55,578 nt of DNA. Origin: a virus. Its lineage: Duplodnaviria; Caudoviricetes. Every line of letters begins with the position of its first letter. Position 1 is the first letter of the stretch. The translations under genes and the position numbers were made by a program. This document shows positions 1,660 through 25,442 of this stretch, piece by piece. The notes beneath the pieces are model-generated. The model was not told the origin of the DNA, ran no database searches, and saw nothing but the letters and a program-made list of their open reading frames with translations. The DNA lies in IMG/VR virus record IMGVR_UViG_3300032069_000014, positions 1-55,578 of that record; one strand, written 5' to 3'.

Positions 1660-3363
1660 ATGGCAAATGAAATTCAACTGATACACGACGACGCGGCGGA
1701 GACCATCTACGCGATTGTCCGCGAGACGGCGTCGACGGGACGGTGGTACGACAACACAACCGACCACGCGCTGGAGACGTTCGACTCGGCCAATTGGGCG
1801 ACCTACGCGATAACGCTCGCCCAGGTCGATGTCAGCAGTCCGCCGACGACGGGCAACGCGGCGTACCAGGGCACGTTCCCGGCACTCGCTGCCGGGTTCT
1901 ACTGGCTGGACGTCTACGTCCGGGCCGGCGCTGCGGCGGCGCAGACGGACGTCCGAACGGCCAGCTACCTGTTTTACTGGAACGCGACGGCGCTTGTCCC
2001 GGCTGGCGGCGCGGCGGATGCGCAGCAGGTCAGTGGCAGCGCCACAGCGGCCGATCACATCGAGAGCGTGTTCCTCGGCACTGGGCACACCGACGACGTT
2101 GACATTTCGGTTCGGAAGTTTGATGTGACGAACGATGCGGGTCCGGCAGTGACCTTGAGCGGCACGACGTATGGAATGAGGATCATCGCATCCGCCGGCA
2201 ATGGGTTAAGCGCCCAGGGCAGCGGTGTTGGGCTGGTGGCTTTGGGGTCGGCAGGTGCGGGAGCGAGATTTGCGGCAAATGCTGACGGCGTCGATGGGCT
2301 GCAACTGCTTGGTGTCGCTTCTGGAAGTGGTTTGCGCTGCTTCAACACCGCTGGCGGCGGGGATGCTACCGGACACGGGATATACGCCACGGGCGGTGCT
2401 ACAAGCGGAGACGGCATTCGCGCGACGGCTGCCAATGGCAACGGAATGATAGTAGTGGGAGCGGGCGTCGGGTACGACCTGAACGCCGACATTCACGGCA
2501 CGCTGGACACGGCGGAATCTTCCGTGGCCGCCGCGCTGGCCGCGTACCCGGTCCCCCTGGCGACTGACGTGCAGGACTCCGCCGCTGCCGCGCTGGAGGC
2601 GTACAACTCTACCGGCGTCGCCAAGGAGGACAGCGTCGGGGCAATCGCAACAATCCTGGCCGGCATTTCGTCTCTGGCGCACTGGCTGCGGGGGCTATAC
2701 AACAAGCGCGCCATGGACTCCACGGCGCTGACGGAAATCCGAGACAGCACAGGCACATTCGACCCGACAACCGATAGCAATGAGGCCATCGCGGATAAGA
2801 CCAGCGGATTGACCGCTCAGCAGACCCGCGACGCCCTGAAGCTCGCCCCGTCCACGGGCGATCCTGCGGCGGGCAGCATCGACGCGGAACTGGACACGCT
2901 CGATACCGTTGTCGACGCGATCAAATCGAAGAGCGACTTAATCGGTTCAGCGAGCATAACTGTTATTAGCCCAGTAGCTCAGTCGGGTAAGGTCGAGATT
3001 TATAGCGGCAACGACTATCTCCTCTCTGAAAGTAGAGCACTACCGTGGGTTGTCACTGGAGCCGAAGTAGCTTTCCTTGACGGAGCAACAGTGACTTTAC
3101 GTATTCTGCGGGCTCCTCTATTCCATCGTGGTCATACATTCGAAGATCTCGAAGCTGATGCTGAGTTCGAGGGTGACGTAGTAGTCGCAGACGAAAAAGC
3201 TACGATAACCGTTGAATTACTAGCAGCGGATACTAGCGCGCTAGATGCCTCCAGTTCTGGCTACGTCTACCAGCTCGTTGCAGAAACAACTGATAAAACG
3301 ACTCATACAATAGCGGCGGGTGTGTTTACGGTCGTGAAGACTATCCAGGAGCCGGGTGCCTGA
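1660..3363 (+). CDS. Virion structural / tail fibre-like protein
   Basis: 567 aa, Gly/Ala-rich beta-repeat middle (GxGxxA) and a BppU-like C-terminal beta domain. Confidence 0.55.
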   Translation: MANEIQLIHDDAAETIYAIVRETASTGRWYDNTTDHALETFDSANWATYAITLAQVDVSSPPTTGNAAYQGTFPALAAGFYWLDVYVRAGAAAAQTDVRTASYLFYWNATALVPAGGAADAQQVSGSATAADHIESVFLGTGHTDDVDISVRKFDVTNDAGPAVTLSGTTYGMRIIASAGNGLSAQGSGVGLVALGSAGAGARFAANADGVDGLQLLGVASGSGLRCFNTAGGGDATGHGIYATGGATSGDGIRATAANGNGMIVVGAGVGYDLNADIHGTLDTAESSVAAALAAYPVPLATDVQDSAAAALEAYNSTGVAKEDSVGAIATILAGISSLAHWLRGLYNKRAMDSTALTEIRDSTGTFDPTTDSNEAIADKTSGLTAQQTRDALKLAPSTGDPAAGSIDAELDTLDTVVDAIKSKSDLIGSASITVISPVAQSGKVEIYSGNDYLLSESRALPWVVTGAEVAFLDGATVTLRILRAPLFHRGHTFEDLEADAEFEGDVVVADEKATITVELLAADTSALDASSSGYVYQLVAETTDKTTHTIAAGVFTVVKTIQEPGA

Positions 3364-4691
3364 TGAGTAATACGATTACATATGAATGCCTACCGAAACA
3401 GCAGGTATTCTTTCAGAACTGCGATGAAGTACCTTTTTCTGCTTACATCGGCGGCTTCGGGAGCGGTAAAACACACGGCCTCGTTCTCCAATCGCTTCGT
3501 GCGTGTACACGATCGGCTCCTTCGTTCGGATTGATCGGAGCTCCTACGTATCGCATGCTTAGTGACACAACTCAACGAAAGTTCTTCGAGCTCTGTCCGC
3601 CTGCGTGGATAGAGCATTTCATCAAGTCAGAGAATCGTGTTGTGCTCAAGAATAAGACGGAGATCATCTTTCGTTCACTCGAAAGCCCCGAAAGACTGAC
3701 GAATCTCGAATTAAGTTGGTTCGCAATCGACGAGATAGGTGAAGTTATTCTCGATACATTCCGAATGCTTCAGGGCCGCCTGCGAGATCCGCGGGGTTGC
3801 CTAAAGGGATTCTGTGTAGGCAACCCTGCAGGTCCCGCACACTGGACCTGCATGTACTTTCTCCTTAAGAAAGAACCATCGTATCGTCTCGTGCAGGCGT
3901 CCTCCTACGAGAATACATTTCTTCCACAGCAGTATTTTGATGAGATGGAAACAAGCTTTGGGAAAGACTCTGTTTACTATAAGCGCTTTGTTCTTGGCCT
4001 CTTCGTAGCGCCCGAAGGAGCTATATGGCCGAACTTCTCCCCTCGGCCTTATCCGGGCGGCCACATCGTTAGCGACGAGCAAGTTCGGGCACTACGCCCT
4101 GTCCGCTTTGGTCGAGTAATAGACTTTGGTATCGAACACCCCTTTGTCTGTATGTGGTGGGCTATTTCAGCGTCAGGACGCGAGATAGTTTTCCTGGATG
4201 AATATGCGGAGTCACATAAGACGATTCGCTATCATTGTCTCCGCATTAAAGAGAAGGAGAAAGAGATCCGGGAACGCTTCGGTCCCTTTGATATAGATCT
4301 CTCTGTTACCGATCATGATGCTGTTGCGCGCACGGAAATTGTTAATTGCACGGACGAGAATGGAGACTATATCGGTTTTGACGTAACACCCGCTGACAAA
4401 GCGGTGCTCGAAGGGATTCTTTTGGTCTCATCGCTCTTCGAGCAAAAGCGTTGTCTTCTCTCAGGTCGATGTGAGTTAGCTCTTCGTCAGGTAGTCTCCT
4501 ATCACACGAAATCAAAAGATAATGTTGCTACTCCTATTGCAGCCAAGGAACAGCCGGTCAAAAGAGACGACGACACCTGTGATTGTATTCGTATGGCGTG
4601 TAAGATGGTGATGCCAGAGACGTTAGGCTTTTTGAGGAGCTCCGGCCGTTATCTTAGCGCGAGCGACATTTACGACGGAAAAATCGAATGA
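3363..4691 (+). CDS. terL: Terminase large subunit
   Basis: Walker A GGFGSGKT, Walker B FAIDE, coupling motif GNP, nuclease IDFG...HPF and DDTCDCIR. Confidence 0.95.
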   Translation: MSNTITYECLPKQQVFFQNCDEVPFSAYIGGFGSGKTHGLVLQSLRACTRSAPSFGLIGAPTYRMLSDTTQRKFFELCPPAWIEHFIKSENRVVLKNKTEIIFRSLESPERLTNLELSWFAIDEIGEVILDTFRMLQGRLRDPRGCLKGFCVGNPAGPAHWTCMYFLLKKEPSYRLVQASSYENTFLPQQYFDEMETSFGKDSVYYKRFVLGLFVAPEGAIWPNFSPRPYPGGHIVSDEQVRALRPVRFGRVIDFGIEHPFVCMWWAISASGREIVFLDEYAESHKTIRYHCLRIKEKEKEIRERFGPFDIDLSVTDHDAVARTEIVNCTDENGDYIGFDVTPADKAVLEGILLVSSLFEQKRCLLSGRCELALRQVVSYHTKSKDNVATPIAAKEQPVKRDDDTCDCIRMACKMVMPETLGFLRSSGRYLSASDIYDGKIE

Positions 4692-6103
4692 GTGGCGAAC
4701 AAGAACTTCTCTTAAATAACTACGCGGAAATCCGTGAACGCTATCGCAGTCTTACTCAAGCAGCGCCGGCGTCGCAGATCCTAACAGATCCGCACGGACT
4801 TTATCGCGTCTCGCCGAATTATCTGTCGCAGCAGTTCGCAGGTTTTGATAAGCTCTTCCTCACGCTTGTCGAAGGTATTGTTGAAGATCCTGATTTCGCG
4901 CTTCGTAAAGATTCACGCATCTACGAGCGGATGATGCGGGATCCCCAGATCTACTACTGTCTCGCTGTGCGACGTGCAGCGACAGCGGGACTCTCCTGGA
5001 GTATTACGCCTCCGGATTCCGCGGAGAAAGATCCGCAAGCACAGGAGATAGCGTCAGCGGCGGAGAGACGTATCCGACGCATCCCCCAGTTCAACGAGTT
5101 CCTCGATAATATCCTTGATGCGTTCCTCTCTGGTTTGAGTGTCAACGAATTGTGTTGGCAACTCGTCGAGAAAGAATACGTCATCACTGAGCACTACCCG
5201 AGAAACAAAGATCGTTTTGTCTTCGATAAAGACGGCAATCCTCGGCTCCGTACACGAACGTCCCCTACGACCGGCGTCCCCGTGCCTCCATATAAGTTCA
5301 TCGTACACCGATTCAACATCTCGGATGGTTCATGGGCTCGCCCTGATGAAGCAGGCTACATCTACTTCGGTCGCGGTTTAGCTGATACTCCATTGTATCA
5401 CTACTTCTACTTCAAAGTGCAAATCCTCCGCTTTATGATGCGCGCGCTTGAGCGATATGGTACTCCACAGAAGATCTTCTACACCTCGTCACAAAGCAAG
5501 GCGCTTACTGATAGAGTACACGAAATTCTCTCCTCGCTCGAGAATGACGCAAGCGTAGTAATCCCAGGCAAGAAGGGCGAAGTAAACGTTGATGTCGCGA
5601 AAGCGATGATCTCTGCGCAGATGTTCTCCTCCTCGATAGAATACATCGACCGCTTAATCACGCGATCTATCCTGGGCCAAGAATTGATGACGGAGATGCC
5701 CGAAACCGGCTCGTATGCTGCGGCGCAGGTACATGCGTCGGTGTTCGATCGCATCACTGAGTCAGACCGCCTCTTAGTCCAGGACACGCTCAATCGCTCA
5801 CTGATGTTGTTCGATACGCAACTAAACACACCGAAGCTCCCCGAGGCGCTCCGGCCAAGATTCGAGTTCAAGCGTGCACCCCGCGTAGACATTCCCCTCT
5901 TCTTGGAGTCAGTTGCGGCGGCATCTCGTCTTGGCGTTGAAGTCAGCGAAGTTCAGTTCCGCGAGCTCACCGGTCTACGCGAGCCGCGTGAAGGCGAAGG
6001 TGTGATCGGTGGCATGGAACAACAGATGATGCAACAGCAACAGCAGCAACCAGAAGCCCCACCCACCTCAAAGCAAAGAGGAGAAGCGAAGCGTGGCGAA
6101 TAG
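4688..6103 (+). CDS. Portal protein, DUF935 / Mu gp29 family
   Basis: Follows TerL; motifs GLSVNELCW, ERYGTP, ILGQELMT..GSYAAAQVH. Confidence 0.9.
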   Translation: MSGEQELLLNNYAEIRERYRSLTQAAPASQILTDPHGLYRVSPNYLSQQFAGFDKLFLTLVEGIVEDPDFALRKDSRIYERMMRDPQIYYCLAVRRAATAGLSWSITPPDSAEKDPQAQEIASAAERRIRRIPQFNEFLDNILDAFLSGLSVNELCWQLVEKEYVITEHYPRNKDRFVFDKDGNPRLRTRTSPTTGVPVPPYKFIVHRFNISDGSWARPDEAGYIYFGRGLADTPLYHYFYFKVQILRFMMRALERYGTPQKIFYTSSQSKALTDRVHEILSSLENDASVVIPGKKGEVNVDVAKAMISAQMFSSSIEYIDRLITRSILGQELMTEMPETGSYAAAQVHASVFDRITESDRLLVQDTLNRSLMLFDTQLNTPKLPEALRPRFEFKRAPRVDIPLFLESVAAASRLGVEVSEVQFRELTGLREPREGEGVIGGMEQQMMQQQQQQPEAPPTSKQRGEAKRGE

Positions 6104-9100
6104 ACGAAAGCATCCTCATGTGTTTGCTGTATGCCCGCGATGCAATCACAAATGGTCTGCCCCTGGCGGAATACGTGTCGGAGCTGTTATTTGTCCGTTA
6201 TGTGGAAGTGTACTAGAACGTATACCTTCACCGAACAAAGGCGAAAAGGGAACGTTTTATGCTCGTGTGTATCCACGAGAGCATCCCGAAGAGGCGATTC
6301 GAGAGGTGAAGAGACTACAGAAGCTGATCGGCTTACCTCATCAGCGCGGAATGAAAGATATGAAGGTAGCTGATATAAAAATGACAAGTGGCGGCGGGGC
6401 AAGACGCATAGGACAAGCGGGTCCTTCTGGCGAGCCAATAGATCTGGTTTCTCCGCGCTGGTTTCGGGCATATAAGAAAGCAAGAAATATAGGACAGCGG
6501 CCAAAAACATTGCGTGAGGTAACCGCACATGAAGTTGCGCATCAATTGGTTCATACGTCATCGCGTTTACCCAGAGATCTAGGGCATGCTACGCCTTTTA
6601 CTTCGGTGCGTCGTTATGTTACGCGCGTCGCGAAGAATGCGGGTATCAATAAGAAATTAGCTAAGCTCGGATATGCTCGTACGCCCTTAGCTCCTGTGTG
6701 GACTAATCCGTTACCTAAGATAGCGCGGGAGATGAGCAAGGTGACAGTTCGGCCGGCTATACCACTCATGAAACGGATCAAACAATTACCGCGCAAGCTA
6801 CAAAGAAGTTGGCGCCGTTTTTGGTTTATTACACCTGATGAGCGATATGCATTGGAGCGACGATCGCAGTATGATCCTGAGAATGTTCGTACTCTTGAGA
6901 AAGAGATGCGTCAGCATAATGTACCTTCTAAAACGAGACTGCAATGGCATTCACGGGTCTTTGGCGGCTCGGGAGGCTTGAAAAGTGAAGATATATACAA
7001 AATCTCACGTAAGAAAGAGGCGAAGAAAGGTGTGTACATCTTTCCATATGTCAAGACTGCGCCGCCGGAGGTCAATCGGATCCTAGAGGAGACATACCGC
7101 CGTCATCGTAAAGATCTTTCCTCGCGTGTTAACGCAGGTGATCTAACTGAACGCGAAGCTAAACAGCGGGCAGCTATTGCATCTTGGGCTGCAGTAAAAC
7201 GAGCCGGATACAGAAAGGTAAAGAAACCTATGGATGTCTGGGAAAAACAACAGCAGTACTTTCTCTCGGAGCAGGCTCAATCGCAAGCTCTCTGGAAGCA
7301 GGCGCGGCAGCGGTGGCTTAAACACGGGCGTATGCCGAAAGCTCTAATGGTGCCAATAGGTGGTGGACGCTTCGTGCGTATGAGAACAGTTTTTCCCGCG
7401 AGCGAACCTGCTGCGCGCGCCTCGAGTCTTTCCGTACGTCATAAACTACTGAATAACCCGCAAGTCCAGACCGAGATGGCTGATATGATCGCCGGCGAAA
7501 TTCATAAAGCGACCCATGAGCCTACGCCCGCGCGACGTATGATTCGTTTTAAGAAAAAGCCCACAGGCCATTTAACAAGTGCGCTCCTTGTTGGTGGTGG
7601 CGCTACTGTTGGCGGCGCTCATCTCGCTCACAAGCGTCGCCGCGAGCAAGAGCAAAAGCAGTACGCTCGTTTCGCTAACGTGCGTGAGGGATTTCCGATT
7701 ATACTTTCGGAGTTGGGGTTTTCTAAATATCCGCGAGCGGCAGCTTTAGCAAAAAAAGCAATGACAGCTGGAATGTTAGCATCAAACGAGGTGCGCGTTC
7801 GAACTCCGCGCGCCGGATCTATTAGGCGCCTTTTTGGTAAATGGGCGAATCAGGGTACGCCAGCGCTTTCATTGACTCCTCGTTTTAATGCTTCAGTCAA
7901 GGTATCGCCGCGTTATACGACGGATCAGCAAATGCAGCGTCTAACGAAAAGAGTATCAGGAGGTGAAGTTGAACATGAACGAAGATTACTTCAAGTAGGA
8001 AAGGGACTGATGAATCCCCAAACAAGGCGAGAGTTCGAAAAAGTTGCCCGTAGTTGGTACTCACCAGATGAACTTGCGAAGATGTCACATCAAGGAGAAT
8101 CCGCCGTACAATACAGTGTAAAGGGATTCACTTCGTGGCTGGGAAAACATCCGAACCTTCTCCTCTCGGCGGCGGCTGGATCAGTTACAGCTGCACACCT
8201 TCGCCGAATGTGGAGAGAACATCAGGAGAAGAGGATGAGAGAAAGATATAGCCTCCGTACAATAGGACATCAAGCGCTCGAGGGAATCAGAGGCGGGTTC
8301 CGCGATAGTCTCCCTCCTCCACCCACTAGGCCCCTAGCAGAACGCATGGGTAGAGCAATAGGAGCTGCACCGAATGAGATGCTCGTGGGCGTAAAGAACA
8401 CTGTAGCAAAAATCCCTGGAGGAATAGCAAAAGGTGCTTTTCTGATGGGGCTGGGGTTAGCCCTTGCAAAGCTCCTCGAGAGCGGCTCGAAGTACTGGCC
8501 TGGAGCTCCTGTTGTACGTGCTGATGTAGAAGGTCTAGAACCTTACTATCTGCGCTTAGCGCGTTACTACGCGCGACGTCTCTGCGCTGAGGGTTCCGAG
8601 CAGGAGCTCCACTATGCTGCTATAGCTACGACCGGCTTCGCCGTGAAAGCCCGCAATGCTTTTCTGCGTCATGCAGTGTCGTTCCTCGCAGGAATGATTA
8701 CTGCTGAGCTCCTCGGTCGCGGGATCGGGCGAAAGAAAGAGACGCATCAGCTGGAGCATATTCGTCAACCGCGTGAGTATTCAGCACACTATGTAATGCG
8801 TGCACGGACAGTTCCGCGTCATGGAATGCATCTGATCCCACCAGCGCAGATCGCCGAAGGAGAAGCTCGGAGTATCCTCCGCGGTAACAAACGCCAAGCA
8901 CGGTCAGCAAAGCTTCGTAAAGCTGCGAAACTTGGCGTCCCTGTAGTTCTCTTGAGTGGAGGTGTTGGTTATCTCGGGTTACGAAAGAAACGAGATGGCG
9001 AATCAGCGAAGCAATATCAGGTAGCTAGCTGGTTCGGTAAAACACTCAGTAAAGCTGGAAAGTGGCTCGGGATAGGAGCTACAGGAGCAGCTAAGTCGCC

Positions 9101-9335
9101 CTGGGGAGCGGGTGTGATCCCGAAGGGTATGCGCGGCGCGAAACGAACAGCTTATGTCGAACGCATGTTCGGTGTTCCTAGACCTTCGACCACCCCGTGG
9201 ACGCAGCGCGCTATGAAAACAATGAAAGAGAATCCCATGATACCGGCGTTCGGTATAATGACTGCTGCGCCTCTATTGATTCCGCCGCCAGAGCAGCGGG
9301 TTAGGCATATCTATGATGATGATGAGGAGAGATAA
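6093..9335 (+). CDS. Giant basic modular protein (putative internal head polyprotein) with Zn ribbon, HExxH and ChaB-like modules
   Basis: 1080-aa ORF between portal and protease; CPRC/CPLC, HEVAH...GH, AAIASWAAVKRAGY; repeated Gly/Ala hydrophobic segments followed by K/R clusters. Confidence 0.7.
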   Translation: MANRRKHPHVFAVCPRCNHKWSAPGGIRVGAVICPLCGSVLERIPSPNKGEKGTFYARVYPREHPEEAIREVKRLQKLIGLPHQRGMKDMKVADIKMTSGGGARRIGQAGPSGEPIDLVSPRWFRAYKKARNIGQRPKTLREVTAHEVAHQLVHTSSRLPRDLGHATPFTSVRRYVTRVAKNAGINKKLAKLGYARTPLAPVWTNPLPKIAREMSKVTVRPAIPLMKRIKQLPRKLQRSWRRFWFITPDERYALERRSQYDPENVRTLEKEMRQHNVPSKTRLQWHSRVFGGSGGLKSEDIYKISRKKEAKKGVYIFPYVKTAPPEVNRILEETYRRHRKDLSSRVNAGDLTEREAKQRAAIASWAAVKRAGYRKVKKPMDVWEKQQQYFLSEQAQSQALWKQARQRWLKHGRMPKALMVPIGGGRFVRMRTVFPASEPAARASSLSVRHKLLNNPQVQTEMADMIAGEIHKATHEPTPARRMIRFKKKPTGHLTSALLVGGGATVGGAHLAHKRRREQEQKQYARFANVREGFPIILSELGFSKYPRAAALAKKAMTAGMLASNEVRVRTPRAGSIRRLFGKWANQGTPALSLTPRFNASVKVSPRYTTDQQMQRLTKRVSGGEVEHERRLLQVGKGLMNPQTRREFEKVARSWYSPDELAKMSHQGESAVQYSVKGFTSWLGKHPNLLLSAAAGSVTAAHLRRMWREHQEKRMRERYSLRTIGHQALEGIRGGFRDSLPPPPTRPLAERMGRAIGAAPNEMLVGVKNTVAKIPGGIAKGAFLMGLGLALAKLLESGSKYWPGAPVVRADVEGLEPYYLRLARYYARRLCAEGSEQELHYAAIATTGFAVKARNAFLRHAVSFLAGMITAELLGRGIGRKKETHQLEHIRQPREYSAHYVMRARTVPRHGMHLIPPAQIAEGEARSILRGNKRQARSAKLRKAAKLGVPVVLLSGGVGYLGLRKKRDGESAKQYQVASWFGKTLSKAGKWLGIGATGAAKSPWGAGVIPKGMRGAKRTAYVERMFGVPRPSTTPWTQRAMKTMKENPMIPAFGIMTAAPLLIPPPEQRVRHIYDDDEER

Positions 9336-10973
9336 ATGCCAGCGAACTTGAAAGCTATTAGTGTCAGGCAGCTTATGCGACAGAAGCCGCCAGGGTGGTT
9401 TGAGGAGCTCTTGATACGACTCGGGGCACGTGCTGCTGCGCCTATAGTCACTGGTACAGCATCCTATGTCGGCGGCCGTCTTGCCGAGAGGCGACGAACA
9501 AGAAAGAAGTTGGGTTTCGCTATGGACGAACAAATTGAAATGTACCCAATGAAATCGCAAGCTCAGAGACGGTTTCTACACGCAGTGCATCCAGACATCG
9601 CCGAGGAGTTTGAGTCAAAGACGCCTGCAGGCAAGAAGCTCCCCGAGCACGCGAGGAAAAAGAAGAAGTATGCTTTGTCTCCTAAGTCCAATATAACGAT
9701 AAGACATGCAGTCGACGAAGCTATAAGAGCCGCACCCCAAAGAATTATTCCTGCCGGGGTATTAGCGAGCGCAAACTTAGCTGCCGCTCTGCTCGCTAAT
9801 CGGCGAAAAGAACAAGAGCTTCAGGGAAAGAAGCCCGAGATGACAACTGGCGGTAAGGTTTGGAGAGGCGCTGTTACAGGCCTAACGGGAACGTGGCCGG
9901 GATATCTTATCGGGCGTAAGATCGGTGGGATGGAAAACGCGACACCCACTAAGCATGCGAAGAAGAAGAAGAAATATGAGCTTCCGCTCGGGTCGAGGCT
10001 CAAGTGGGGAGCGAAGCGATGGGCCAAACGAGCAGCTCTCGTCGGCGGAGGAGCACTCGGCGGTGCTGCGTATGTGAAAACACGTCGAGCCAAGAGAGAA
10101 TATGACGTCTTACGTTCTGCGGGTTTCACTCCTCAAGAAGCCTCCGAGATCGCTACTGCTGGCATATTAGGGAAGTATTCTCTTAACTATCAAGCACCTT
10201 CCGCGACCCCGATCAGAACAGGCTTAGGACAAGTCTGGAGCGGCCTCAAGTCAGGTTATGAGACAGCTGCTCCCCATGTCCAAGAGTGGCTTAAGAGGCC
10301 AACGTCTCGTAGGTTAGCTCTAGCAGGTGCAGGTGCAGGCTATTATCTAGGTAGAAGAAAGAAGAGAGAGCGCGAGGGATATTCTCTTAGCTACGCTAAG
10401 AAAGAAAAGACCTATCCTATTCGACGCGCTATTCTCGGGGTAGCCGACATGCATACTAAAGATCTGGTAAGGACATTGCAATCTCATGGAGGCCCGACCG
10501 GCTTCTTCGGTAAAGCCGCAGCGCATGAGCTTAAGAAACGTGGCTTTTCGGACCAAGAGATCCAAAAAGCAATGAAGAAAGTATACAGCTTGCAGGGGTA
10601 TTCTCTTTACCAGCAGTACAAGAATAACCCCGATCTTATGCGTGCGATAGCTGCTCGTGACGGCGTCGAACTCGATGTCCAGAGATACGCAATACAGGAT
10701 GTCCTCACCGGCTGGCAACTCGGCTATAAGCACGGAGAAGAGGAAGCGCAGGGGATCCGTCCTGCTCCGGGGGCTTTGAGGTTGGCGGCACTAATGACGT
10801 TGCACGGAGAGAGCTATGTCCTTGGGCGTCAGAAAGCTCTTACAGAAGCAGGGATGCATGGTGGTACGCGTCAGAGCGAGTCCTTCCTGGAAACACTAGT
10901 CAAGTCGGTCGACAGACTCCTTGGCGGAGAAACGAAAAGTGCCGAAGCTCTTGAAACAACGGCAAGCGCATGA
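9336..10973 (+). CDS. Basic modular protein (putative internal head polyprotein)
   Basis: 545-aa ORF abutting the previous stop; same module architecture. Confidence 0.7.
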   Translation: MPANLKAISVRQLMRQKPPGWFEELLIRLGARAAAPIVTGTASYVGGRLAERRRTRKKLGFAMDEQIEMYPMKSQAQRRFLHAVHPDIAEEFESKTPAGKKLPEHARKKKKYALSPKSNITIRHAVDEAIRAAPQRIIPAGVLASANLAAALLANRRKEQELQGKKPEMTTGGKVWRGAVTGLTGTWPGYLIGRKIGGMENATPTKHAKKKKKYELPLGSRLKWGAKRWAKRAALVGGGALGGAAYVKTRRAKREYDVLRSAGFTPQEASEIATAGILGKYSLNYQAPSATPIRTGLGQVWSGLKSGYETAAPHVQEWLKRPTSRRLALAGAGAGYYLGRRKKREREGYSLSYAKKEKTYPIRRAILGVADMHTKDLVRTLQSHGGPTGFFGKAAAHELKKRGFSDQEIQKAMKKVYSLQGYSLYQQYKNNPDLMRAIAARDGVELDVQRYAIQDVLTGWQLGYKHGEEEAQGIRPAPGALRLAALMTLHGESYVLGRQKALTEAGMHGGTRQSESFLETLVKSVDRLLGGETKSAEALETTASA

Positions 10974-12651
10974 AGGCGTATCGGATTGGATTCGCATCTA
11001 TACCGAATCCCTTCATGCTTTGAGTGGGCGTCATAAGGACGCGCCGATAGCTAAACAGGCGCGGCGCGTCCTTGACGATCTTGCTCGAGAAGCCCTCTCT
11101 CTGGGGCGAGGGAATGTTTGGCTGCCGGAACCAGGCGCTGAAGGGTATTATCCGACAATAGGCGAGATTGCCTACCCCGATCTCAGAACCGCACTTCGCA
11201 AGGGTGCTCGGAGCCAGATAAAGGAAGCGGCTTGGGCAAGAGCACGCAAAACCGAAAGCCCGTATACCCCACCACCTCAAAGCACCCAGAATATACCCGA
11301 GCACGGGTTAGGAGCGCGTTCTTTCGGTGAGAAGAAGACTTTACGTTCGCAGCTTACTGCGTTAGGAATGATCGACGAAAACGGGAAGTGGCTTATAGAC
11401 CCTCGTGGTCATACATCAGAAGCTGCGATGGCGCGGGAGTTGATGGTTGCAATGCCTGTAGCTGAAGGAAGATACCCAGAGTTTCTCGGAAGAAGAGTAC
11501 CGGGGACCCTGTTTCGTAGAGAACGTGGCTCTGTCCTGCGTTGGGACGAGATATCCCCCGAAGATGTTCAAATAGGCGGAGGTTTTTCACCAATGAAATT
11601 CGCGCGTGTTACGTCATATGCTAAATTCGCTCCGATAAGAGAAGCTCTGCCCGCCTGGATTTCTGAATCAGGCGGCTCGCATTTGTCTCCTCGTGCGCTG
11701 AAAGGGTTGAGTCAAGTCACTCGTGGTACCATGGGTCTCCTTGGGGTCAAAGAGATGCGGACCCCGAGAGCAGGGAGTTATCGTCGGTTACGCCTCAAGT
11801 GGGCTCGGCAGGGTATCTCTCCTACTGAGCAACAAATAAGAGAAAAACTATTAACGGTGGCACCTAATTATACAGGTCTTGATCTAGAGATGAAGGCGCA
11901 GAAGCCTAGGTTCCTAAAAAAAATTATGCGCGCATCAACAGGTGAAGGATCGCCGCGCGAGCAGGCGCTCGGAGGTCTTTTAAACCGTGGCGTCGAGAAC
12001 GTGAATGCTGGTTATAAACAGCTTCAGCAGCAGCTTCTGCAGCGACGAAGAGGCGCGGGGCCAGCACAGTATCGTATTGGGGCAGGAATGCAGTATGCTC
12101 TGGTGCGGAAAAAGACATCGCACGAGACGGTTAATGTAGTTATGCCCCAGTCGAGTCTTGGCTCGCAGGCAGCTTCCAGTGTGATAGGCGGAGCAGCTGG
12201 TGCTTCAGCGGCGTTGCTCGTTGATCGAATTGTGAAAGCGATAGGGAAACGCGTCAAGAGATTTGCGTTGAAGCCTAAAGAAAAAGTGTGCTTCTACGCC
12301 GGTTTCTTCGAGCAGCTAAAGGAAGCGGGGCTCCCTGCGTTATCTCGGGGAGCACTGATGGGACTTCTTGACGCTGTACACCAGGAGCTCGGGATACTTC
12401 CGGCGATAACCGTAGATAACATTCCTATACACCGTAAATCATTCGATTCAAGGTTTGAGCGGCTCGGTAACATGGAGCTCCGGGCAAAAGCGCGACGTCT
12501 CGCCGAACATCCCTTGCTGCAGCAAGAGCAGGATCTCCTAGCTCAACCAAATGTATCGAAACAGGCAATAGATGCAATACGAGTCAAGAGCGCCCCCTAC
12601 AGAAAGACACTGGAGGAACTTATGAAGGAGGTTATACACCGCGAGGCATAA
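10939..12651 (+). CDS. Basic modular protein (putative internal head polyprotein)
   Basis: Long ORF, probable GTG start at 10939 after GGAG; contains a module paralogous to one in the 1080-aa ORF. Confidence 0.7.
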   Translation: MPKLLKQRQAHEGVSDWIRIYTESLHALSGRHKDAPIAKQARRVLDDLAREALSLGRGNVWLPEPGAEGYYPTIGEIAYPDLRTALRKGARSQIKEAAWARARKTESPYTPPPQSTQNIPEHGLGARSFGEKKTLRSQLTALGMIDENGKWLIDPRGHTSEAAMARELMVAMPVAEGRYPEFLGRRVPGTLFRRERGSVLRWDEISPEDVQIGGGFSPMKFARVTSYAKFAPIREALPAWISESGGSHLSPRALKGLSQVTRGTMGLLGVKEMRTPRAGSYRRLRLKWARQGISPTEQQIREKLLTVAPNYTGLDLEMKAQKPRFLKKIMRASTGEGSPREQALGGLLNRGVENVNAGYKQLQQQLLQRRRGAGPAQYRIGAGMQYALVRKKTSHETVNVVMPQSSLGSQAASSVIGGAAGASAALLVDRIVKAIGKRVKRFALKPKEKVCFYAGFFEQLKEAGLPALSRGALMGLLDAVHQELGILPAITVDNIPIHRKSFDSRFERLGNMELRAKARRLAEHPLLQQEQDLLAQPNVSKQAIDAIRVKSAPYRKTLEELMKEVIHREA

Positions 12652-12721: not shown

Positions 12722-14359
12722 ATGGCAAAGTTCAACATAATACCAGAGGATGAAAAAGGTGAATTCTTCACCGTCAAGGAGATTCCCGTCTTCGAGATGC
12801 ATACTGATAGGGGCTTCGCTTGCGATGCTGCGTGGATGGCCGATGCGATTAAGAACCACGAACATTATGCCAGCCAAGACTGGAGACCTCCCATAATCGT
12901 CGGTCATAACACGAAGGGAGCTGAAAAGGAATCGGTGGGGTTCCTCGATAACTTACGTCTCAAAGGTGCACGGCTCTACGCGGATATGGTGCGGGTTCCG
13001 AAAGAGATAGTGCAGAAGTTCAAGCGCAATGCATGGCCCTCAAGAAGCGTCGAAGTCCTCCCGAAAGCAAAGCGTATCTTAGCTCTTGCTCTTCTCGGAG
13101 GCACTGCACCTCATTTTGCTTTACCTCAAGTAGCGTATGGTTTGGAAACAGATGAAGAACCAGTTTGGTATAGGAGCCCAACAATGGGAACGAACATGTT
13201 CACTGACGAGCAGCGCAAAGAGCTTTTTGGAATGATCGGCGAAGCGGTTACTCAAGCCGTCCCCGTCGCACTCCAGGAGGCACTACATTATGATGACCCG
13301 GAAGAAGACGAAGACGAAGTCGAAGAAGACGAGGACGAAGGTGAGTACTCACTTCAGGAACTCGTCGAGATATACGCAAACCCGAAGACGCCACCCAGCA
13401 TGAGAGAGCGAGCAATGGCGGCAATTACGGGTTTGGGTGAGAAAATAGGCGGAGCCGCTCAAAGCGCTCGCTTCGGCGCGCGTCGCTTAGCTGGCCGAAT
13501 GACGGGTACTCGCGGCGGCGGGCGCTATGGGCCGGCTTTCCGGCGCAGCGCAGAGGCTGCCGGGCGACAGCTGAAAGCAGGTGCGCGAATTCATGCGGGG
13601 CAGCTCGCTACAGCGGGTGTTGCTGGTGCTGCGGGTGCCGGACTCGGAGCTGCTGCTGTTGGTGGCCGTAAGCGCCGCAAGCATGAATATGCCCTTGACG
13701 AGAACAACCTGGTGCTCTACGATGAGCAGGGCAATGTTGTAGGGCAGGTCGTGCCTACTGCACCTGACCCGACAGATCTCCCGCCGACGATGGACGATGA
13801 TCCTTCGCTCGAAGCCGACGAGGGGGCAGTCGGAGTAGGATCGGGAATCGACTCAACGCTTCAGAACGATCCGGGCGACCCCGAGACAGACTTGATCGAG
13901 GAAGTGGGTCGTGAGGATTCGGATCAATTCGCATCAGAGGAAGACGCTATGCAATATGACCTACAGCGAAGAGTCGATACGCTCGAGACAGCCAACGCGC
14001 TTCTGCAGACTGGCCGTAAGGCCGAGCAACTGAAGACATATTTGCTGCATCAGCAGCAGAACGGGGCACCTATTAAGGACGTCGAGCAAACACTCGCGTT
14101 TATGATGAGCCTCGATGACGGTCAGCTCGAGACTTTCCAAAAGCAGCTCGAAAGTTCTCCGAAGGTATCGTTAGGGCGAATTTCCGAAGACGCCGTTACG
14201 AACTATGACCTCCGTACATCAGAGATCAAAGAAGACTATGCTCGAAACAGAACTGTCTATCGTGGCCTTGGCGTCACCGAAGAAGACATGAAGTACGCCG
14301 ATTTCGTGCGGTCGGGTCCGTTCAACGCTGGCGGAAACAACAGTGGTGTTAAGCGCTAA
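12722..14359 (+). CDS. Prohead protease/scaffold fusion (Mu gpI-like)
   Basis: N-terminal PIIVGH...VGF...RLYAD...SRSVE...LALLGGTAP protease pattern; acidic helical C-terminal scaffold; upstream of capsid. Confidence 0.8.
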   Translation: MAKFNIIPEDEKGEFFTVKEIPVFEMHTDRGFACDAAWMADAIKNHEHYASQDWRPPIIVGHNTKGAEKESVGFLDNLRLKGARLYADMVRVPKEIVQKFKRNAWPSRSVEVLPKAKRILALALLGGTAPHFALPQVAYGLETDEEPVWYRSPTMGTNMFTDEQRKELFGMIGEAVTQAVPVALQEALHYDDPEEDEDEVEEDEDEGEYSLQELVEIYANPKTPPSMRERAMAAITGLGEKIGGAAQSARFGARRLAGRMTGTRGGGRYGPAFRRSAEAAGRQLKAGARIHAGQLATAGVAGAAGAGLGAAAVGGRKRRKHEYALDENNLVLYDEQGNVVGQVVPTAPDPTDLPPTMDDDPSLEADEGAVGVGSGIDSTLQNDPGDPETDLIEEVGREDSDQFASEEDAMQYDLQRRVDTLETANALLQTGRKAEQLKTYLLHQQQNGAPIKDVEQTLAFMMSLDDGQLETFQKQLESSPKVSLGRISEDAVTNYDLRTSEIKEDYARNRTVYRGLGVTEEDMKYADFVRSGPFNAGGNNSGVKR

Positions 14360-14804
14360 TCTTGGTACGACGCTCCGCGCTAAGCAAGGCGACATTTTCG
14401 GCTATAAGGTCGCTGGCGGGGTACATATCTATGTTGGAGCAACAGTAACGGTTGCGTTAGCTGGTGCCACAGCGGGATATGCACGTCCCGCGCTGAGCAA
14501 TGATACCGGATTGTCCCAACTAGTTGTGGGAGTAGCGCGAAAAGAAGCAAATGCTGTTGGAAAGAATAACGGTGATCTGGAAGTTCTTGTCCAACGCGGT
14601 CGATGGCGACGCGAGAAAGCGGGTGCGGTACAATCCGATGTTGGAAAGCTCGCTTGCGTGGCTGATGATGAGACGGTGCGTCTTTATGACCTTGCTGCTG
14701 AAAGCAACATTGTTTGTGGGCGCATCACTGAAATCGATGGGTCGCGTGTATTCGTCGATTATGATATGCAAAATGCACGGGTAGCAACAAGCCTAACACA
14801 ATGA
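14343..14804 (+). CDS. Head decoration / capsid cement protein
   Basis: Position before the capsid gene; IYVGA.V...GYARP...VVGVA...DVGK....DDETV pattern. Confidence 0.7.
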   Translation: MVLSANLGTTLRAKQGDIFGYKVAGGVHIYVGATVTVALAGATAGYARPALSNDTGLSQLVVGVARKEANAVGKNNGDLEVLVQRGRWRREKAGAVQSDVGKLACVADDETVRLYDLAAESNIVCGRITEIDGSRVFVDYDMQNARVATSLTQ

Positions 14805-14817: not shown

Positions 14818-15990
14818 ATGGCAGGCGGAAATATTGGAAACGCACTTCAAGTGAGACTGAAAGGTGATATCCTTTCGTTTCCAGTGAAGATAGCGACGGC
14901 AATCTATCGCGGCGCTCCAGTTGCAGCAGATTCGACAGGATACGCTGTAATGGCAAGCGACGAAGCCGCGATGAAATTCCTCGGTATAGCGGAGGAAAGC
15001 AACACAGTCGCTGAAGCAGTCGCAAGCGGGACCGTCAGTGTAAAGGTTCGCCGGCGCGGTATTTTCCGGATGAAGTTAACAGGCGTGGATATCACGCACA
15101 TAGGTCTTCGTGCTTATGCTGAGACAGCTCAGGGCGCATCGACGGATTACGCAGTTGCGCTCGCTGCTAGCTCAGCGTACAAGAACCTAATCGGTACCAT
15201 CGTCAAGTTAGACGCCACAGACAATTACTGTTGGGTTGACATCGCCCCTGAATATGGCGTCGACATGGATGTGACAGCGCACGAAGCGTTACATAGCGGC
15301 GACGCGCATGTAATTAGCGCAATTGCGGGCGAGGCGTATACGCTAGCGGGAACGGATCCATCCATTACATTTGCGATGGCGCTAAAGCGCGCTGTGGTCT
15401 TGTCTGATAATACGCCGAATGTTGTTACGTTGCCTACGGCAGCCGCAATGGACGCATTAGGTGACGGACTGACATTTCGTGTAGTTAAAGGCGGTACGGG
15501 TGTTGACGCTGTTACGTTCACACCAGGAGCAGGTTCGGTTATCGCAGGTGATGGTGTTATCAACAATAGTACGCTCGTGCGTACTATGGCGCCCGGCGAT
15601 TCGATTACCTTCACTTATACAAAGACAACACCTGCTACAACCTATACTGTTGTTGCCGAGACACATGCTCCTTACGGAGTCAAGGTAACTGAAACAGGTA
15701 CGATCTCGCTTGCGCAGATGCGAGCAGGTGGTGTAATCGAAGTCGCTAACGGCGCCGCTGCGACGTTGGATCTAGCTACTCCGACGGGTGTCTTTGATCT
15801 CTACCGTCGTGTCAGTTTCGTGAAGACAGCGGGCAACAGTTTTGCTATTACGCTTACCACAGCCGGCGCAGAGACAATCGACGGCGCAGCGAATGACGGC
15901 GCAGACATGGATGCTCTCTATGACTCAAAGACACTGACTTGGATGGGCGCGACAGTTGGATGGGTTACGACAAGTAAGAACATTCATTAA
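14818..15990 (+). CDS. Second cement-like protein with C-terminal extension
   Basis: N-terminus paralogous to the previous gene (GDILSFPV...IYRGAPV...GYAV...FLGIA); C-terminal TLPTAA/ETIDG fibre-like repeats. Confidence 0.65.
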   Translation: MAGGNIGNALQVRLKGDILSFPVKIATAIYRGAPVAADSTGYAVMASDEAAMKFLGIAEESNTVAEAVASGTVSVKVRRRGIFRMKLTGVDITHIGLRAYAETAQGASTDYAVALAASSAYKNLIGTIVKLDATDNYCWVDIAPEYGVDMDVTAHEALHSGDAHVISAIAGEAYTLAGTDPSITFAMALKRAVVLSDNTPNVVTLPTAAAMDALGDGLTFRVVKGGTGVDAVTFTPGAGSVIAGDGVINNSTLVRTMAPGDSITFTYTKTTPATTYTVVAETHAPYGVKVTETGTISLAQMRAGGVIEVANGAAATLDLATPTGVFDLYRRVSFVKTAGNSFAITLTTAGAETIDGAANDGADMDALYDSKTLTWMGATVGWVTTSKNIH

Positions 15991-16094: not shown

Positions 16095-17162
16095 ATGCTA
16101 CCGTATGATGTCGGAATATTGGAGCGCGGGATTCGAGGCATCTTTGCTCGCGAATTCCTCACTCGGCAGAAGAGAGTGAAGTATACTCGCTTCACCTCGA
16201 TTGTGAATAGCGACAAAGAGGAAGAGAAGTACGCAATGATAGGTACGCTCCCGCAGCTCTCGGAGCTGATCGACGAGCGTGCCTTGGCGGGCTTCTCTTC
16301 GTACGACTACACCCTTAAGAACAAGACGTATGTAAGCGGTGTCAAAGTTCCTCGTCAAGTCTTCGACTTTGACCAGACCGGGCAGCTGCGTACACTTGTT
16401 CAGAGCCTCGGGGCTCGCGTTGCTAACTTCCCCGATAAGCTCGTCGCAGCGTTGCTGCGGAACGGAGACCAAGCAACATATATCGGTTACGACAAAGCGA
16501 TCTTCTTCAGCTCTTCACATGATTTAGGGAATGGGACGAACCAGATCAACAAGTTCACCGGAAACGTGACTGATAATATGTTGGATGCGGTTGTAGGTAG
16601 CTCGACCGACAAAGCCGACAGGGATAACGCAATCGCCGGCTTCCAGATGGACCTGATGAAGGCGAGAGCACAGCTTTCTGGGTTCACTGATGATCGTGGT
16701 GAGCCATGGCATGACAGCCTCGATGCTGCAGGACTTATTATTGTCTGCGCACCGAAGATGGAAGCGATCGCTCGAGTAGCTATTGAAGGTACGCTGATTA
16801 GCGACACCACCAACATGACGCTGAAGTTGGCTGGCGACATTATTACCTCCCAGTATTCGCTCGACGCGGGTAGCTATATGAGCTCGTGGTATCTACTGAA
16901 GGTAGATACGCCGATCCAGCCCTTCATCTTCCAACGCTTCGGACCAAAGACAGATTTCCCTGATGTCATTCCCGAAGCCGACCAGGAAGTACTCAAGGCG
17001 CTGAATGCTGTCGAGATCCAGACCGTCATGCGTGGTGGGCAGAACATCGATGCCCATACGTTCTTCAATGACGAGTTCCTCTTCGGTGCTCGAGTCATCT
17101 ACTCGGCCGGATATGGAATGTGGCAGAACGCGATCAAGATCCAAGGGTCAACAGGCTCGTAA
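16095..17162 (+). CDS. Major capsid protein, Mu gpT family
   Basis: YTLKNKTY..GV.V.R, GYD..IFFSSSH, WYLL....PIQPFIFQ, FLFGAR....AGYGMWQ. Confidence 0.9.
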   Translation: MLPYDVGILERGIRGIFAREFLTRQKRVKYTRFTSIVNSDKEEEKYAMIGTLPQLSELIDERALAGFSSYDYTLKNKTYVSGVKVPRQVFDFDQTGQLRTLVQSLGARVANFPDKLVAALLRNGDQATYIGYDKAIFFSSSHDLGNGTNQINKFTGNVTDNMLDAVVGSSTDKADRDNAIAGFQMDLMKARAQLSGFTDDRGEPWHDSLDAAGLIIVCAPKMEAIARVAIEGTLISDTTNMTLKLAGDIITSQYSLDAGSYMSSWYLLKVDTPIQPFIFQRFGPKTDFPDVIPEADQEVLKALNAVEIQTVMRGGQNIDAHTFFNDEFLFGARVIYSAGYGMWQNAIKIQGSTGS

Positions 17163-17685: not shown

Positions 17686-18204
17686 ATGGCAGTTGTACAT
17701 AGAGTTCCTGGACCGATAAGCGTTTCGGTAGCAAAAGGAAGCGGTGGCTGGCTACCTTTGGGGCTCACAAAAGCCGGGGCGATCATACGCATCGAAAATC
17801 GCTGGGAGCCTATAGTTTGTGATGCGTTCGGTTCAGAACCTGTTGACTACGTCGCTTCGGGCGGCGGGTGCCAAATAGAAATCATTGGTCTCGATATAGA
17901 ACACGTCGCGACTGCTTTAGCAGGTATTTTAGAAGAAACGTGGGGTACAATTCAGAAAGTCGGTTATCTCATAAGCGGAGAGACAAATAGCGTAGCAGCC
18001 GATTGCATAAAAGTGAAAATAACCGAAGGGACTCTTATTGGTAATCAAGCTCAGGTTTGGGAAGCCGATAAGTGTACTGTAGCCAACACTCATGAGATAG
18101 CACTCCGTTCTACTCAAGAGTTTCAGATACCGCTGATCTTTAACGTTCTCCCAGATAGCGGCGGCAGCCTTTTCCAGGCGCTCCCGAGCTACATTCGAGC
18201 ATGA
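17686..18204 (+). CDS. Putative tail tube protein (paralogue 1)
   Basis: PGP..V...PLG.T..G.IIR pattern typical of tube proteins; tail module position. Confidence 0.55.
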   Translation: MAVVHRVPGPISVSVAKGSGGWLPLGLTKAGAIIRIENRWEPIVCDAFGSEPVDYVASGGGCQIEIIGLDIEHVATALAGILEETWGTIQKVGYLISGETNSVAADCIKVKITEGTLIGNQAQVWEADKCTVANTHEIALRSTQEFQIPLIFNVLPDSGGSLFQALPSYIRA

Positions 18205-18216
18205 GGTAAGTGAACC

Positions 18217-18678
18217 ATGGCTATATTTCGGATTCCGGGACCTTGTGAAGTCGAGTGGGGCGGAGAACCTCTTGGGGTCACGCGTCAGGGAGTCATAATA
18301 AGAATCCGGCATACACTAACTCCTATAACAGATGACGCGCACGGAACTGCACCAGCAGCATTTATCAACACAGGAAAAAGCGCGCTCGTTACGCTCGAGG
18401 CACTCGATGTGGGTGCATTCAAAACCGCGTGGGATAGTTTACTAAATCTATACGCTGTTGGGACCCTAGCTTCTGCCGTGAGCGACGAGCTCAATATCTA
18501 CGAGCGCGGCAATAATGAACCCGATTGGACAGCTGAGCAAGCGACCTGCATCGACCCATCCAACATAGAGCTACGAGCGACTCAGGAGCTAAGGCTCGAT
18601 GTGTCGTTCTTGATTACTCCGGCACCGTACGGTGAAGAAGGTTATCACAGACTATTCTCGAAGTACCGCCTTACATAA
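18217..18678 (+). CDS. Putative tail tube protein (paralogue 2)
   Basis: Clear similarity to the previous ORF along its length. Confidence 0.55.
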   Translation: MAIFRIPGPCEVEWGGEPLGVTRQGVIIRIRHTLTPITDDAHGTAPAAFINTGKSALVTLEALDVGAFKTAWDSLLNLYAVGTLASAVSDELNIYERGNNEPDWTAEQATCIDPSNIELRATQELRLDVSFLITPAPYGEEGYHRLFSKYRLT

Positions 18679-18698
18679 CTATATAGCAAGGAGAAGAC

Positions 18699-19043
18699 AT
18701 GGCTATTGACTTAGATGCTGTTCCGCCTCCATTTGAGGTAGTATACGAAGGAAACACAAGGAGCTTTGATGTCTGCGAACTCTCTCTCAAACTGGCATCA
18801 TTGCGTGAAACCCCTAACATTAACCCAGAAGCCGCGCTAACGTCAGTTCGAGAGATCACTGGGATGCCGAATCTATCACCCTACCAAATGATGATTTTCC
18901 TAGGCGAATTCAATAAGTTCGCCGAGGAGCATCTCGGGCCCCCTTTTCGAAGGCTTTTCGGGGATGCGCTCTTCTCTGCGCCTACTATGGGCTTTCCCCC
19001 AAAGAGCAGCGAGAGCTCGCCCCCAACGAATATATTGGGTTGA
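18699..19043 (+). CDS. Tail assembly chaperone (gpG-like)
   Basis: Follows the tube genes; contains slippery heptamer C CCT TTT at 18941-18947. Confidence 0.6.
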   Translation: MAIDLDAVPPPFEVVYEGNTRSFDVCELSLKLASLRETPNINPEAALTSVREITGMPNLSPYQMMIFLGEFNKFAEEHLGPPFRRLFGDALFSAPTMGFPPKSSESSPPTNILG

Positions 19044-20667: not shown

Positions 20668-20669
20668 AC

Positions 20670-25432: not shown

Positions 25433-25442
25433 GAGGCGCAGC

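Follow-up and report, generated by a model that had tools for sequence, protein, structure and literature searches.

The window analysed here is the complete IMG/VR virus record IMGVR_UViG_3300032069_000014 (55,578 bases; CheckV completeness 37%), in which three genes for very basic proteins, designated A, B, and C, are followed by a gene for a head protease/scaffold protein. The sequence evidence suggests that this protease probably cuts the products of A, B, and C after tyrosine (Tyr) residues, referred to below as Tyr joints. All window genes of interest are encoded on the + strand, and those of the proposed system are as follows:

6093..9335, + strand: gene A, 1080 amino acids (aa), GTG start
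9336..10973, + strand: gene B, 545 aa, ATG start
10921..12651, + strand: gene C, 576 aa from TTG (570 aa in the recorded call from GTG 10939)
12722..14359, + strand: head protease/scaffold gene, 545 aa, N-terminus matching phrog_976 'head maturation protease' (6.3e-7)

Proteins A, B, and C comprise 2201 aa in total, carry net charges of +118, +47, and +38, respectively, and matched no Pfam or PHROG family. They are encoded between the portal gene (PF06074) and the head protease gene, which bears out a note made earlier on this DNA (the earlier note) that about 2200 aa of very basic protein occupy the position of Mu gpF. The three proteins would represent head-cargo polyproteins, each a string of independent cassettes of 25-230 aa. 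The cassettes are mostly basic, and many have at their end a Gly/Ala-rich uncharged helix, a Lys/Arg (K/R) cluster, and Tyr. Cutting would occur after Tyr (rarely Phe) if Ala or Ser, and then usually Leu or Ile, come next, and the protease would cut itself at the same signal on either side of its own basic insert. The basic precursors might be drawn into the procapsid along with the acidic scaffold by electrostatic co-assembly. Maturation would then yield about 25 peptides, the acidic scaffold pieces would exit, and the basic peptides would remain on the DNA and accompany it into the host. Because each cassette would carry its own joint, cassettes could be inserted, lost, moved, or multiplied without harm to their neighbours, which would explain the fast cassette turnover observed. 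From gene position and composition, the products may be packaged in the head and may have a DNA-binding or membrane-active role.

The Tyr joint was recognized as a short motif enriched in A, B, and C. In these proteins, Ala or Ser follows 20 of the 67 Tyr residues against 11.2 expected (112 of 20000 shuffles reach 20), and there are 8 Tyr-[AS]-Leu sites where 1.02 would be expected, a count that none of 20000 shuffles reached. Among twenty X-[AS]-Leu patterns compared, X=Tyr alone was unusual (7.8-fold); Glu-[AS]-Leu, for instance, was found 4 times vs. 2.15 expected. The protease protein contains two Tyr-[AS]-Leu sites vs. 0.19 expected. The comparison with the rest of the window, proposed in the earlier note as a check, revealed no enrichment there (6 sites vs. 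5.97 expected in 49 + strand open reading frames (ORFs), 13,087 aa). The classical prohead-protease motifs were not enriched in A, B, and C: A-x-E was found 13 times (16.0 expected), Ala followed by Ser 13 times (13.5 expected), and [LI]-x-E 26 times (18.9 expected; 97 of 2000 shuffles reach 26). The data support a joint consensus of Tyr (rarely Phe) at P1, Ala or Ser (in some cases Thr, Gly, or Gln) at P1', and then Leu or Ile. All 15 tripeptide joints quoted in the earlier note are present, and its seven coordinates correspond to Y252, Y524, Y674, Y719, Y841, and Y896 of A and Y233 of C. Its boundary motif [EQKRH]-Y-[ASDE] was retained as far as Tyr-[AS] is concerned, which is enriched and stands at cassette borders; Asp or Glu after Tyr was not supported. 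The proposed joints are listed below:

Gene A: strong after Y56, Y194, Y252, Y389, Y524, Y674, Y719, and Y841; weaker after Y896, Y975, and Y1074
Gene B: strong after F61, Y112, Y281, Y349, Y417, Y422, and Y451; weaker after Y214, Y256, and Y353
Gene C: after Y233, Y392, F448, and Y459

The same motif recurs in relatives of the window. In a large protein collection, 31 homologues of the protease were found (33-88% identity). A search of IMG/VR with the single protease sequence yielded no close relative; a profile of the homologues recovered two IMG/VR loci and 26 metagenome loci, and the same profile found none in the GTDB genomes. Identity of the major capsid protein to those of Mu-like phages does not exceed 27%. 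In every locus with enough flank, the gene order is large terminase (TerL), portal, 4-6.7 kb of basic ORFs, protease/scaffold, two phrog_1731 genes, and major capsid protein. The basic stretch consists of two to four or more ORFs, whose borders vary by locus, and the head protease is present in all loci examined. In the basic ORFs of nine loci, the window excluded, Tyr-[AS]-[LI] occurs 33 times vs. 8.9 expected (0 of 300 shuffles). Without the frameshift-ridden L002, 23 sites were counted vs. 6.25 expected (21 ORFs, 8 loci; 0 of 28,760 shuffles), and 80 control ORFs from the same loci gave 20 vs. 18.2 expected. A clear excess was observed in the individual loci L009 (5 vs. 0.60) and L013 (6 vs. 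0.97).

The joints coincide with the borders of cassettes gained, lost, or exchanged among relatives (a slash marks a joint). Protein A and its relative P0037 are 82-86% identical, and about 95% in the aligned stretches, and differ in three cassettes. A 196-aa deletion in P0037 corresponds to A57-252, from '...GTFY/' to '...DERY/'; 'QQQY389/' is followed immediately by an insertion of 106 aa; and the segment from 'Q-x-Y524/' to 'VQY674/' is exchanged for a non-homologous one. All three differences start after Tyr and end with Tyr. The gene C products of the window, L004, and L005 are otherwise 85-89% identical but differ at the joint after C Y233: L004 has nothing inserted there ('ARVTSY/ARTRKR'), the window has a cassette of 159 aa, and L005 has another one, about 250 aa long, that contains an HExxH motif. 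The HExxH cassette lies in gene A of the window (6261-6674) and in gene C of L005 (about 1490-2240), and is absent from A of P0037; it is bounded by joints of an aromatic and a small residue in each location. For 15 copies of the conserved cassette A253-389, Tyr-[ASGT] was found within 30 aa past the end in 13, the others being a natural C-terminus and Y389/F of A itself; on the N-terminal side, [YF]-[ASGT] was found within 14 aa ahead of the start in 12, and in the other three the protein itself begins with the module. A 30-aa stretch has a probability of about 0.27 of containing one such site by chance.

The Gly/Ala helix modules followed by a K/R cluster, described in the earlier note, are real. 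A strict detector of an uncharged helix followed by such a cluster found 5 elements in the window and 34 in nine loci, 5 of the 34 standing at an ORF end. In 25 of the remaining 29, a Tyr lies within 20 aa (41% expected, p 8e-7), and this Tyr is followed by Ala, Ser, or Thr in 15 of 25 cases, compared with 90 of 325 at other Tyr residues (Fisher 0.0013). In five relatives, an ORF ends with '...KK[AL][IV]G-stop' just past the helix-plus-K/R element, and at the position of this stop, B reads '...RKKLGF61/AMDE' and L007 '...RKILGY/SEHY'. A tandem array was observed in L003:

10796-12889 of L003 (also in L028): array between the protease domain and the scaffold domain

It contains seven units of 45-78 aa, each composed of W-Q-Q-L-K...P-W-K, a Gly/Leu/Ala helix, and RRRRGY, which alternate with seven acidic spacers of 9-12 aa, ALDD[IL]PE[ML]Y. 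All units and spacers are bounded by Tyr/Ala or Tyr/Gly. Two copies within the array are still 84% identical in DNA, with a period of 192 nucleotides (nt). The L003 protease domain (ORF 9944-10546) and the array ORF are in different frames, through either a frameshift or two genes. To judge by its sequence, the array looks like a multi-copy peptide precursor.

The protease protein carries the same signal. Its protease domain covers about aa 1-150, and its C-terminal half is acidic and scaffold-like; the net charge of the scaffold ORF is -29 in the window and negative in most relatives, with the exception of L003 (+9) and, at only -3, L029. Proposed joints lie after Y209 (13346-13348), Y218 (13373-13375), and Y323 (13688-13690). 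The first two stand in an acidic run ending with 'GEY209/SLQELVEIY218/ANP', and aa 219-323 form a hypervariable basic Gly/Ala/Arg-rich insert (net +16) ending with 'GGRKRRKHEY323/ALDENNLVLY'. Among the 31 homologues, the joint columns were occupied as follows:

Column Y323: P1 Tyr 26, Phe 3, Leu 1; P1' Ala/Ser 22, Gln 6; P2' Ile/Leu/Phe 30; P3' Asp 27
Column Y218: P1 Tyr 28; P1' Ala 20; P3' Pro 25

The stretch between Y218 and Y323 is unalignable among the homologues and ranges in length from near nothing to hundreds of residues; in L003 and L029, whole cassette arrays lie between Y218- and Y323-type sites. According to the earlier note, Tyr joints are module borders whose probable cutting releases about 20 basic peptides. 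This idea gained strength from several independent comparisons, namely the cassette insertions and deletions, the stops replacing joints, the tandem array, and the conserved joints of the protease.

The protease had been called Mu-type in the earlier note, an assignment that found no support in sequence comparison. No Pfam family, that of the Mu I-type proteases (IPR012106) included, was matched at E<=0.01 with the whole protein or at E<=10 with aa 1-160, and hhalign of the protease alignment to Mu gpI gave a probability of 0.1. An AlphaFold2 (AF2) model of aa 1-155 had a mean predicted local distance difference test (pLDDT) score of 80. In a Foldseek-independent comparison of this model with 48,161 PDB chains, T4 gp21 ranked first (Z 8.2, root-mean-square deviation (rmsd) 3.7, 119 aligned residues), followed by the proteases of varicella-zoster virus (Z 7.7) and human cytomegalovirus (Z 5.8), and rank 50 had Z 2.6. 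With VIA, the Z score was 8.3 for 5jbl_B (rmsd 3.7 over 120 aligned residues) and ranged from 5 to 7.7 for the proteases of herpesviruses; taken by themselves, the E-values of Foldseek were weak, 8.5e-3 at best. On this model, the protein is a probable serine protease of the T4 gp21/herpesvirus assemblin fold. Each of 20 sequences compared has H27, H62, S109, E111, and H131, and H62 and S109 are likewise present in all 31 homologues. In their order along the chain, H62, S109, and H131 resemble the Ser-His-His triad of assemblin. A sequence-profile search of the PDB with the protease family found nothing relevant. Fused long forms of the protease (955-2725 aa) were not found by a word-based search, which is weak evidence on this point. 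A complex prediction of the protease domain with the 50-residue stretch around Y323 (score 0.01, mark 0.32) spoke neither for nor against cutting.

A number of observations weigh against cutting of A, B, and C by this protease. The Tyr-[AS]-Leu pattern was defined after inspecting the data and is thus post hoc, which is why its later replication in relatives matters, and the signal is weak in the individual loci L029 (1 vs. 0.67), L017 (1 vs. 0.56), and L007 (2 vs. 0.94). P1' is not strict: Y389/F and Y975/Q of A and Y214/E of B count as borders by other criteria. Conserved pairs of Tyr and a small residue also occur within folded modules, such as the invariant C Y27-T in C1-233, and the tripeptide alone is therefore insufficient to define a cut. 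The ends of tblastn matches of A, B, and C to divergent loci lie within 6 aa of Tyr/[ASGT] in 43 of 100 cases vs. 13.3 by chance (2 of 5000 placements), a coincidence limited by the mutual non-independence of these ends. K/R clusters were counted 31 times after uncharged helices and 19 times before them, and with these counts the argument that K/R always follows the helix, so that a polytopic membrane protein is impossible, was dropped. The conserved Tyr of the protease family may have a structural role. A tblastn search of 50,697 GenBank phage records found no match to A or the protease; the clade is therefore known only from metagenomes and has no cultured member among these records. We know of no protease of the assemblin/gp21 fold with Tyr at P1. 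The head proteases of T4, phiKZ, and SPN3US cut after Glu (PMC9026906, PMC10052503; here and below, published systems are represented by parts of the cited articles).

It is conceivable, though unlikely, that the joints are left uncut. Tyr-Ala/Ser-Leu would then cap a structure, or link independently folding cassettes in a way that tolerates recombination, and A, B, and C would act as intact giant proteins of the head interior, the core, or the membrane. The evidence for cutting is all indirect, uncut multidomain proteins also swap cassettes at fixed linkers, some Tyr-small pairs lie within conserved modules, and the Tyr of the protease family opens a conserved 'Y-x-I-D-E-E-T-G-E-V-Y' that could be a fold element. 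However, ordinary linkers have no reason to conserve an aromatic and a small residue, stop codons stand where other loci have joints, and the starts and ends of modules at protein termini match joint positions elsewhere. Moreover, the seven-peptide array of L003, with its acidic spacers and Tyr ends, resembles a precursor rather than a folded repeat protein, and the insert of the protease is itself flanked by the same signal. Cutting at the joints is the reading we prefer.

The cassettes released by such cutting would begin with the following ones of gene A:

6261..6674, + strand: A57-194, HExxH cassette with a further His 15 residues on, ends KLGY/A
6093..6260, + strand: A1-56, zinc-ribbon cassette (CPRC...CPLC), ends GTFY/A
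6675..6848, + strand: A195-252, 58-aa basic cassette, pI 11.9, ends DERY/AL
6849..7259, + strand: A253-389, conserved cassette of 137 aa, more widespread than any other module of the family
7260..9314, + strand: A390-1074, seven more cassettes of 45-150 aa, pI 9.6-11.6

The four aligned cassettes of the A57-194 type all retain H-E-x-x-H and the later His. The match to the Pfam SprT-like family (E 0.0039, 17.5 bits) is below the cut-off of 25.6 bits, the AF2 model (pLDDT 53) was too poor for a structure search, and a PDB sequence-profile search with the cassette found nothing relevant. From its motif, A57-194 is possibly an SprT-like zincin. A very improbable alternative is that the joints are cut by another enzyme, either the embedded HExxH (SprT-like) cassette or a host protease. 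The invariant histidines and the weak SprT-like match of the cassette would suit it, as would the proposal of Iyer et al. (2017) that zincin domains process polyvalent proteins (PMC5512222). Nevertheless, only four of the ten loci examined, namely the window, L007, L014, and L002 (in one small ORF), have HE..H in the region from portal to protease, and L003, which has the richest Tyr-joint array, has no match to the cassette profile in its whole 46.8-kb record (38% complete; the control on the window gave 3e-51). The cassette is itself mobile and joint-bounded. The head protease is favoured as the enzyme because it occurs in all loci and carries the joints itself, whereas the HExxH cassette is mobile and of limited occurrence.

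Cassette A1-56, for which weak zinc-ribbon Pfam matches were obtained, is kept in P0037 and is there fused directly to the next-but-two cassette. A253-389 was the best-conserved stretch in 13 of 21 matches of a representative search, its position varying among the matches. It matched no Pfam family at E<=10, and a suspected resemblance to ChaB was discarded on this result. Most cassettes of A390-1074 carry a Gly/Ala-rich uncharged helix, then a K/R cluster, and Tyr at the end; A525-674 is paralogous to C234-392. A small conserved module was found in gene B:

9519-9671: B62-112, '...YPMKSQAQRRFLHA...PDIAEEFE...LPEH...KKKKY'

This module recurs in eight loci (seven of them distinct) and in P0046 with 45-69% identity. 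C1-233 and C460-576 were found upstream of the protease in nearly all loci. No match to a known family was obtained for the zinc ribbon A1-56, the HExxH cassette, A253-389, B62-112, C1-233, or C460-576, and the ESM Atlas gave only unnamed clusters or no usable match for C18-234 and A253-389. According to Pfam and PHROGs, no effector enzyme domains (ART, nuclease, methylase, kinase, and others) are present in A, B, and C. The Gly/Ala helices have Kyte-Doolittle means of only 1.0-1.9 over 17 residues and are therefore borderline as membrane spans; a membrane-active role of the helix peptides is possible.

Cuts at the strong joints of A, B, and C would number about 19, and about 25 with the weaker ones, giving pieces of 4-233 aa with pI mostly between 9.4 and 11.9. 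Such pieces might also be scaffold or core fragments that the head protease releases and that are expelled before or during DNA packaging, which we consider rather improbable. Cutting of the T4 core proteins gp22, gp67, and gp68 yields many pieces, most of which exit the head (PMC9026906), genes A, B, and C lie directly upstream of the protease/scaffold gene, and the 37% completeness suggests a genome of about 150 kb with a large capsid that may need a core. On the other hand, most of the pieces are strongly basic and would tend to remain on the DNA, and the fast cassette turnover, the zincin-like cassette, and the zinc ribbon better fit arms-race cargo. Retention of the cut pieces as cargo is therefore the version preferred here.

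A wider interpretation, which is plausible but advanced with some reserve, is that an uncultured clade with Mu-type heads has retuned a protease of the assemblin/gp21 fold to Tyr, and uses the joint as a plug-and-play cassette grammar: a cassette with Tyr at its end and Ala/Ser-Leu behind it could be placed at any point of the cargo genes, and even within the protease-scaffold chain. The cassettes may have been multiplied in tandem as in a neuropeptide precursor and delivered free in the capsid. Many products, with a Gly/Ala zipper-like helix and an Arg/Lys tail, may be membrane-inserting or DNA-condensing peptides injected with the genome.

The remaining genes of the head module are as follows:

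3363-4691, + strand: TerL
4688..6103, + strand: Mu-type portal gene (Pfam Portal_Mu PF06074, 3.5e-68; phrog_113), the 3' end overlapping the start of gene A
14343-14804 and 14818-15990, + strand: two adjacent paralogues of phrog_1731 'virion structural protein', between the protease and capsid genes
16095..17162, + strand: Mu gpT-type major capsid protein (Pfam Mu-like_gpT, 2e-36)
Head module, listed after the major capsid protein: Mu gp36-type adaptor

In the annotation of Mu, the genes after the portal gene are F, G, I (protease)/Z, and T; A, B, and C occupy the position of F because the Mu portal gene directly precedes it. Gene A has AGAGGAG 8 nt upstream of its GTG start, and gene C has GGAG 10 nt upstream of GTG 10939, which is its probable start. 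The phrog_1731 pair is kept in all relatives, and its second gene encodes 390 aa, a long extension at the C-terminus included. Downstream of the head genes, at 17686-26039 (+ strand), no tail sheath, tube, or tape-measure family was recognized; this region contains ORFs of 403, 574, and 480 aa without a Pfam or PHROG match and one of 485 aa with a weak CBM_4_9 match.

Several features outside the head module were also recorded. The G+C content of positions 1-2000 is 0.63, compared with about 0.47-0.56 elsewhere, and a protein with an Lcl C-terminal domain is encoded at 1123-1647 (PF07603, 1.8e-16). A set of genes for 7-deazaguanine synthesis at 38091-48007 (+ strand), pointing to modified DNA, includes QueD-like (38091-38525), QueE, GTP cyclohydrolase (40041-40685), and QueC-like genes (44593-45192 and 47345-48007), interspersed with replication genes including that of a DNA polymerase (42596-44476). 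The QueE-like radical SAM gene (38527-40086, + strand, 519 aa) is split by an intein-like insert (about aa 38-363), which falls inside the CxxxCxxC cluster motif of QueE ('CNLRCPY/C...VSN/CDTQY', slashes here standing at the insert). The insert matched Pfam LAGLIDADG_3 (5.3e-12) and, weakly, Hom_end_hint (0.0059), and Radical_SAM matches only beyond aa 376.

Our literature search yielded no paper that describes a prohead protease specific for Tyr or head polyproteins delimited by Tyr. Should the joints be cut, an aromatic P1 specificity would, as far as is known and could be searched, be new among capsid maturation proteases of the assemblin/gp21 fold. The system would also be a clear example from nature of cut sites in a phage polyprotein that serve at the same time as a recombination grammar for the evolution of its cargo. 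In addition, the Tyr/Ala or Ser-Leu or Ile rule would predict the mature head-internal peptidome of a metagenome-only clade and would lend itself to use as a portable tag-and-release system by which foreign peptides are brought into capsids. The statement of the earlier note that this arrangement has not been described needs to be narrowed, since the polyvalent proteins (PMC5512222) and the internal proteins of T4 are close concepts.

Among the systems compared, the minor head protein F (gp30) of Mu and gp7 of SPP1 share with A, B, and C the map position directly after the portal gene. No sequence relation to the MuF/SPP1 gp7 family (IPR006528) was detected: neither A, B, and C nor any single module matched it (Pfam at E<=10, PHROG), none of 15 members of the C1-233 family did, and hhalign of the C1-233 module with Mu F gave a probability of 0.07. 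For a Mu-like protease, the parts of the JBD30 paper covered give no cut site (PMC11445458). The herpesvirus assemblin-scaffold precursor resembles the protein encoded here in having an N-terminal protease of the same fold on a scaffold protein. It cuts itself at short conserved release and maturation sites, between Ala and Ser, with a small P1'. The P1 residue of herpesvirus assemblin is Ala. Unlike the phage of the window, herpesviruses have no cargo polyproteins, and their precursor lacks a basic cargo insert separating the protease from the scaffold.

In phiKZ and SPN3US, as proposed here, the prohead protease (gp175, gp245) cuts many head-internal proteins, including inner-body and ejection proteins (PMC10052503). 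For SPN3US gp245, cleavage follows A-x-E and frequently takes place at several positions in one propeptide; the enzyme also processes itself (PMC10052503). The differences are that P1 is Glu with Ser preferred at P1', that the substrates, as described in the parts of that article covered, lose propeptides instead of being cassette strings (PMC10052503), and that they have no sequence relation to A, B, and C. The motif at which gp21 cuts the core and internal proteins of T4 is L/I-x-E, with cleavage after Glu, and the internal proteins have a 10-residue capsid-targeting peptide (PMC9026906). The core proteins and the internal proteins IPI-III and Alt of T4 offer a close parallel. They are loaded into the procapsid core and cut at a very short motif by a protease that shares the fold of the one described here; part of the products remain in the head for injection, and related phages differ in their cargo sets (PMC9026906). 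Unlike in T4, Ala or Ser follows Tyr at the joint here, A, B, and C show no enrichment of Glu motifs, and instead of separate small cargo genes with an N-terminal targeting peptide, as T4 is described in those parts of the source, about 25 cassettes would be joined in three giant chains.

The polyvalent proteins of phages and conjugative elements, described by Iyer, Burroughs, Anand, de Souza, and Aravind (2017), are large mosaic multi-domain proteins that are quickly reshuffled and encoded beside portal/MuF genes, are thought to be packaged and injected, and were likened by the authors to viral polyproteins (PMC5512222). They often contain a zincin-like peptidase, proposed as the processor, and a few have a C-terminal assemblin-like peptidase (PMC5512222). 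Like them, A, B, and C are multi-module proteins encoded with head and packaging genes and are mosaic among relatives. Polyvalent proteins are defined, in the portions of the article covered, by effector enzyme domains, none of which is recognizable in A, B, and C, and those portions contain no cut-site motif, in contrast to the explicit joints described here (PMC5512222). In A, B, and C, by contrast, the modules are small and basic and contain helices, and the likely processing enzyme is a separate head protease.

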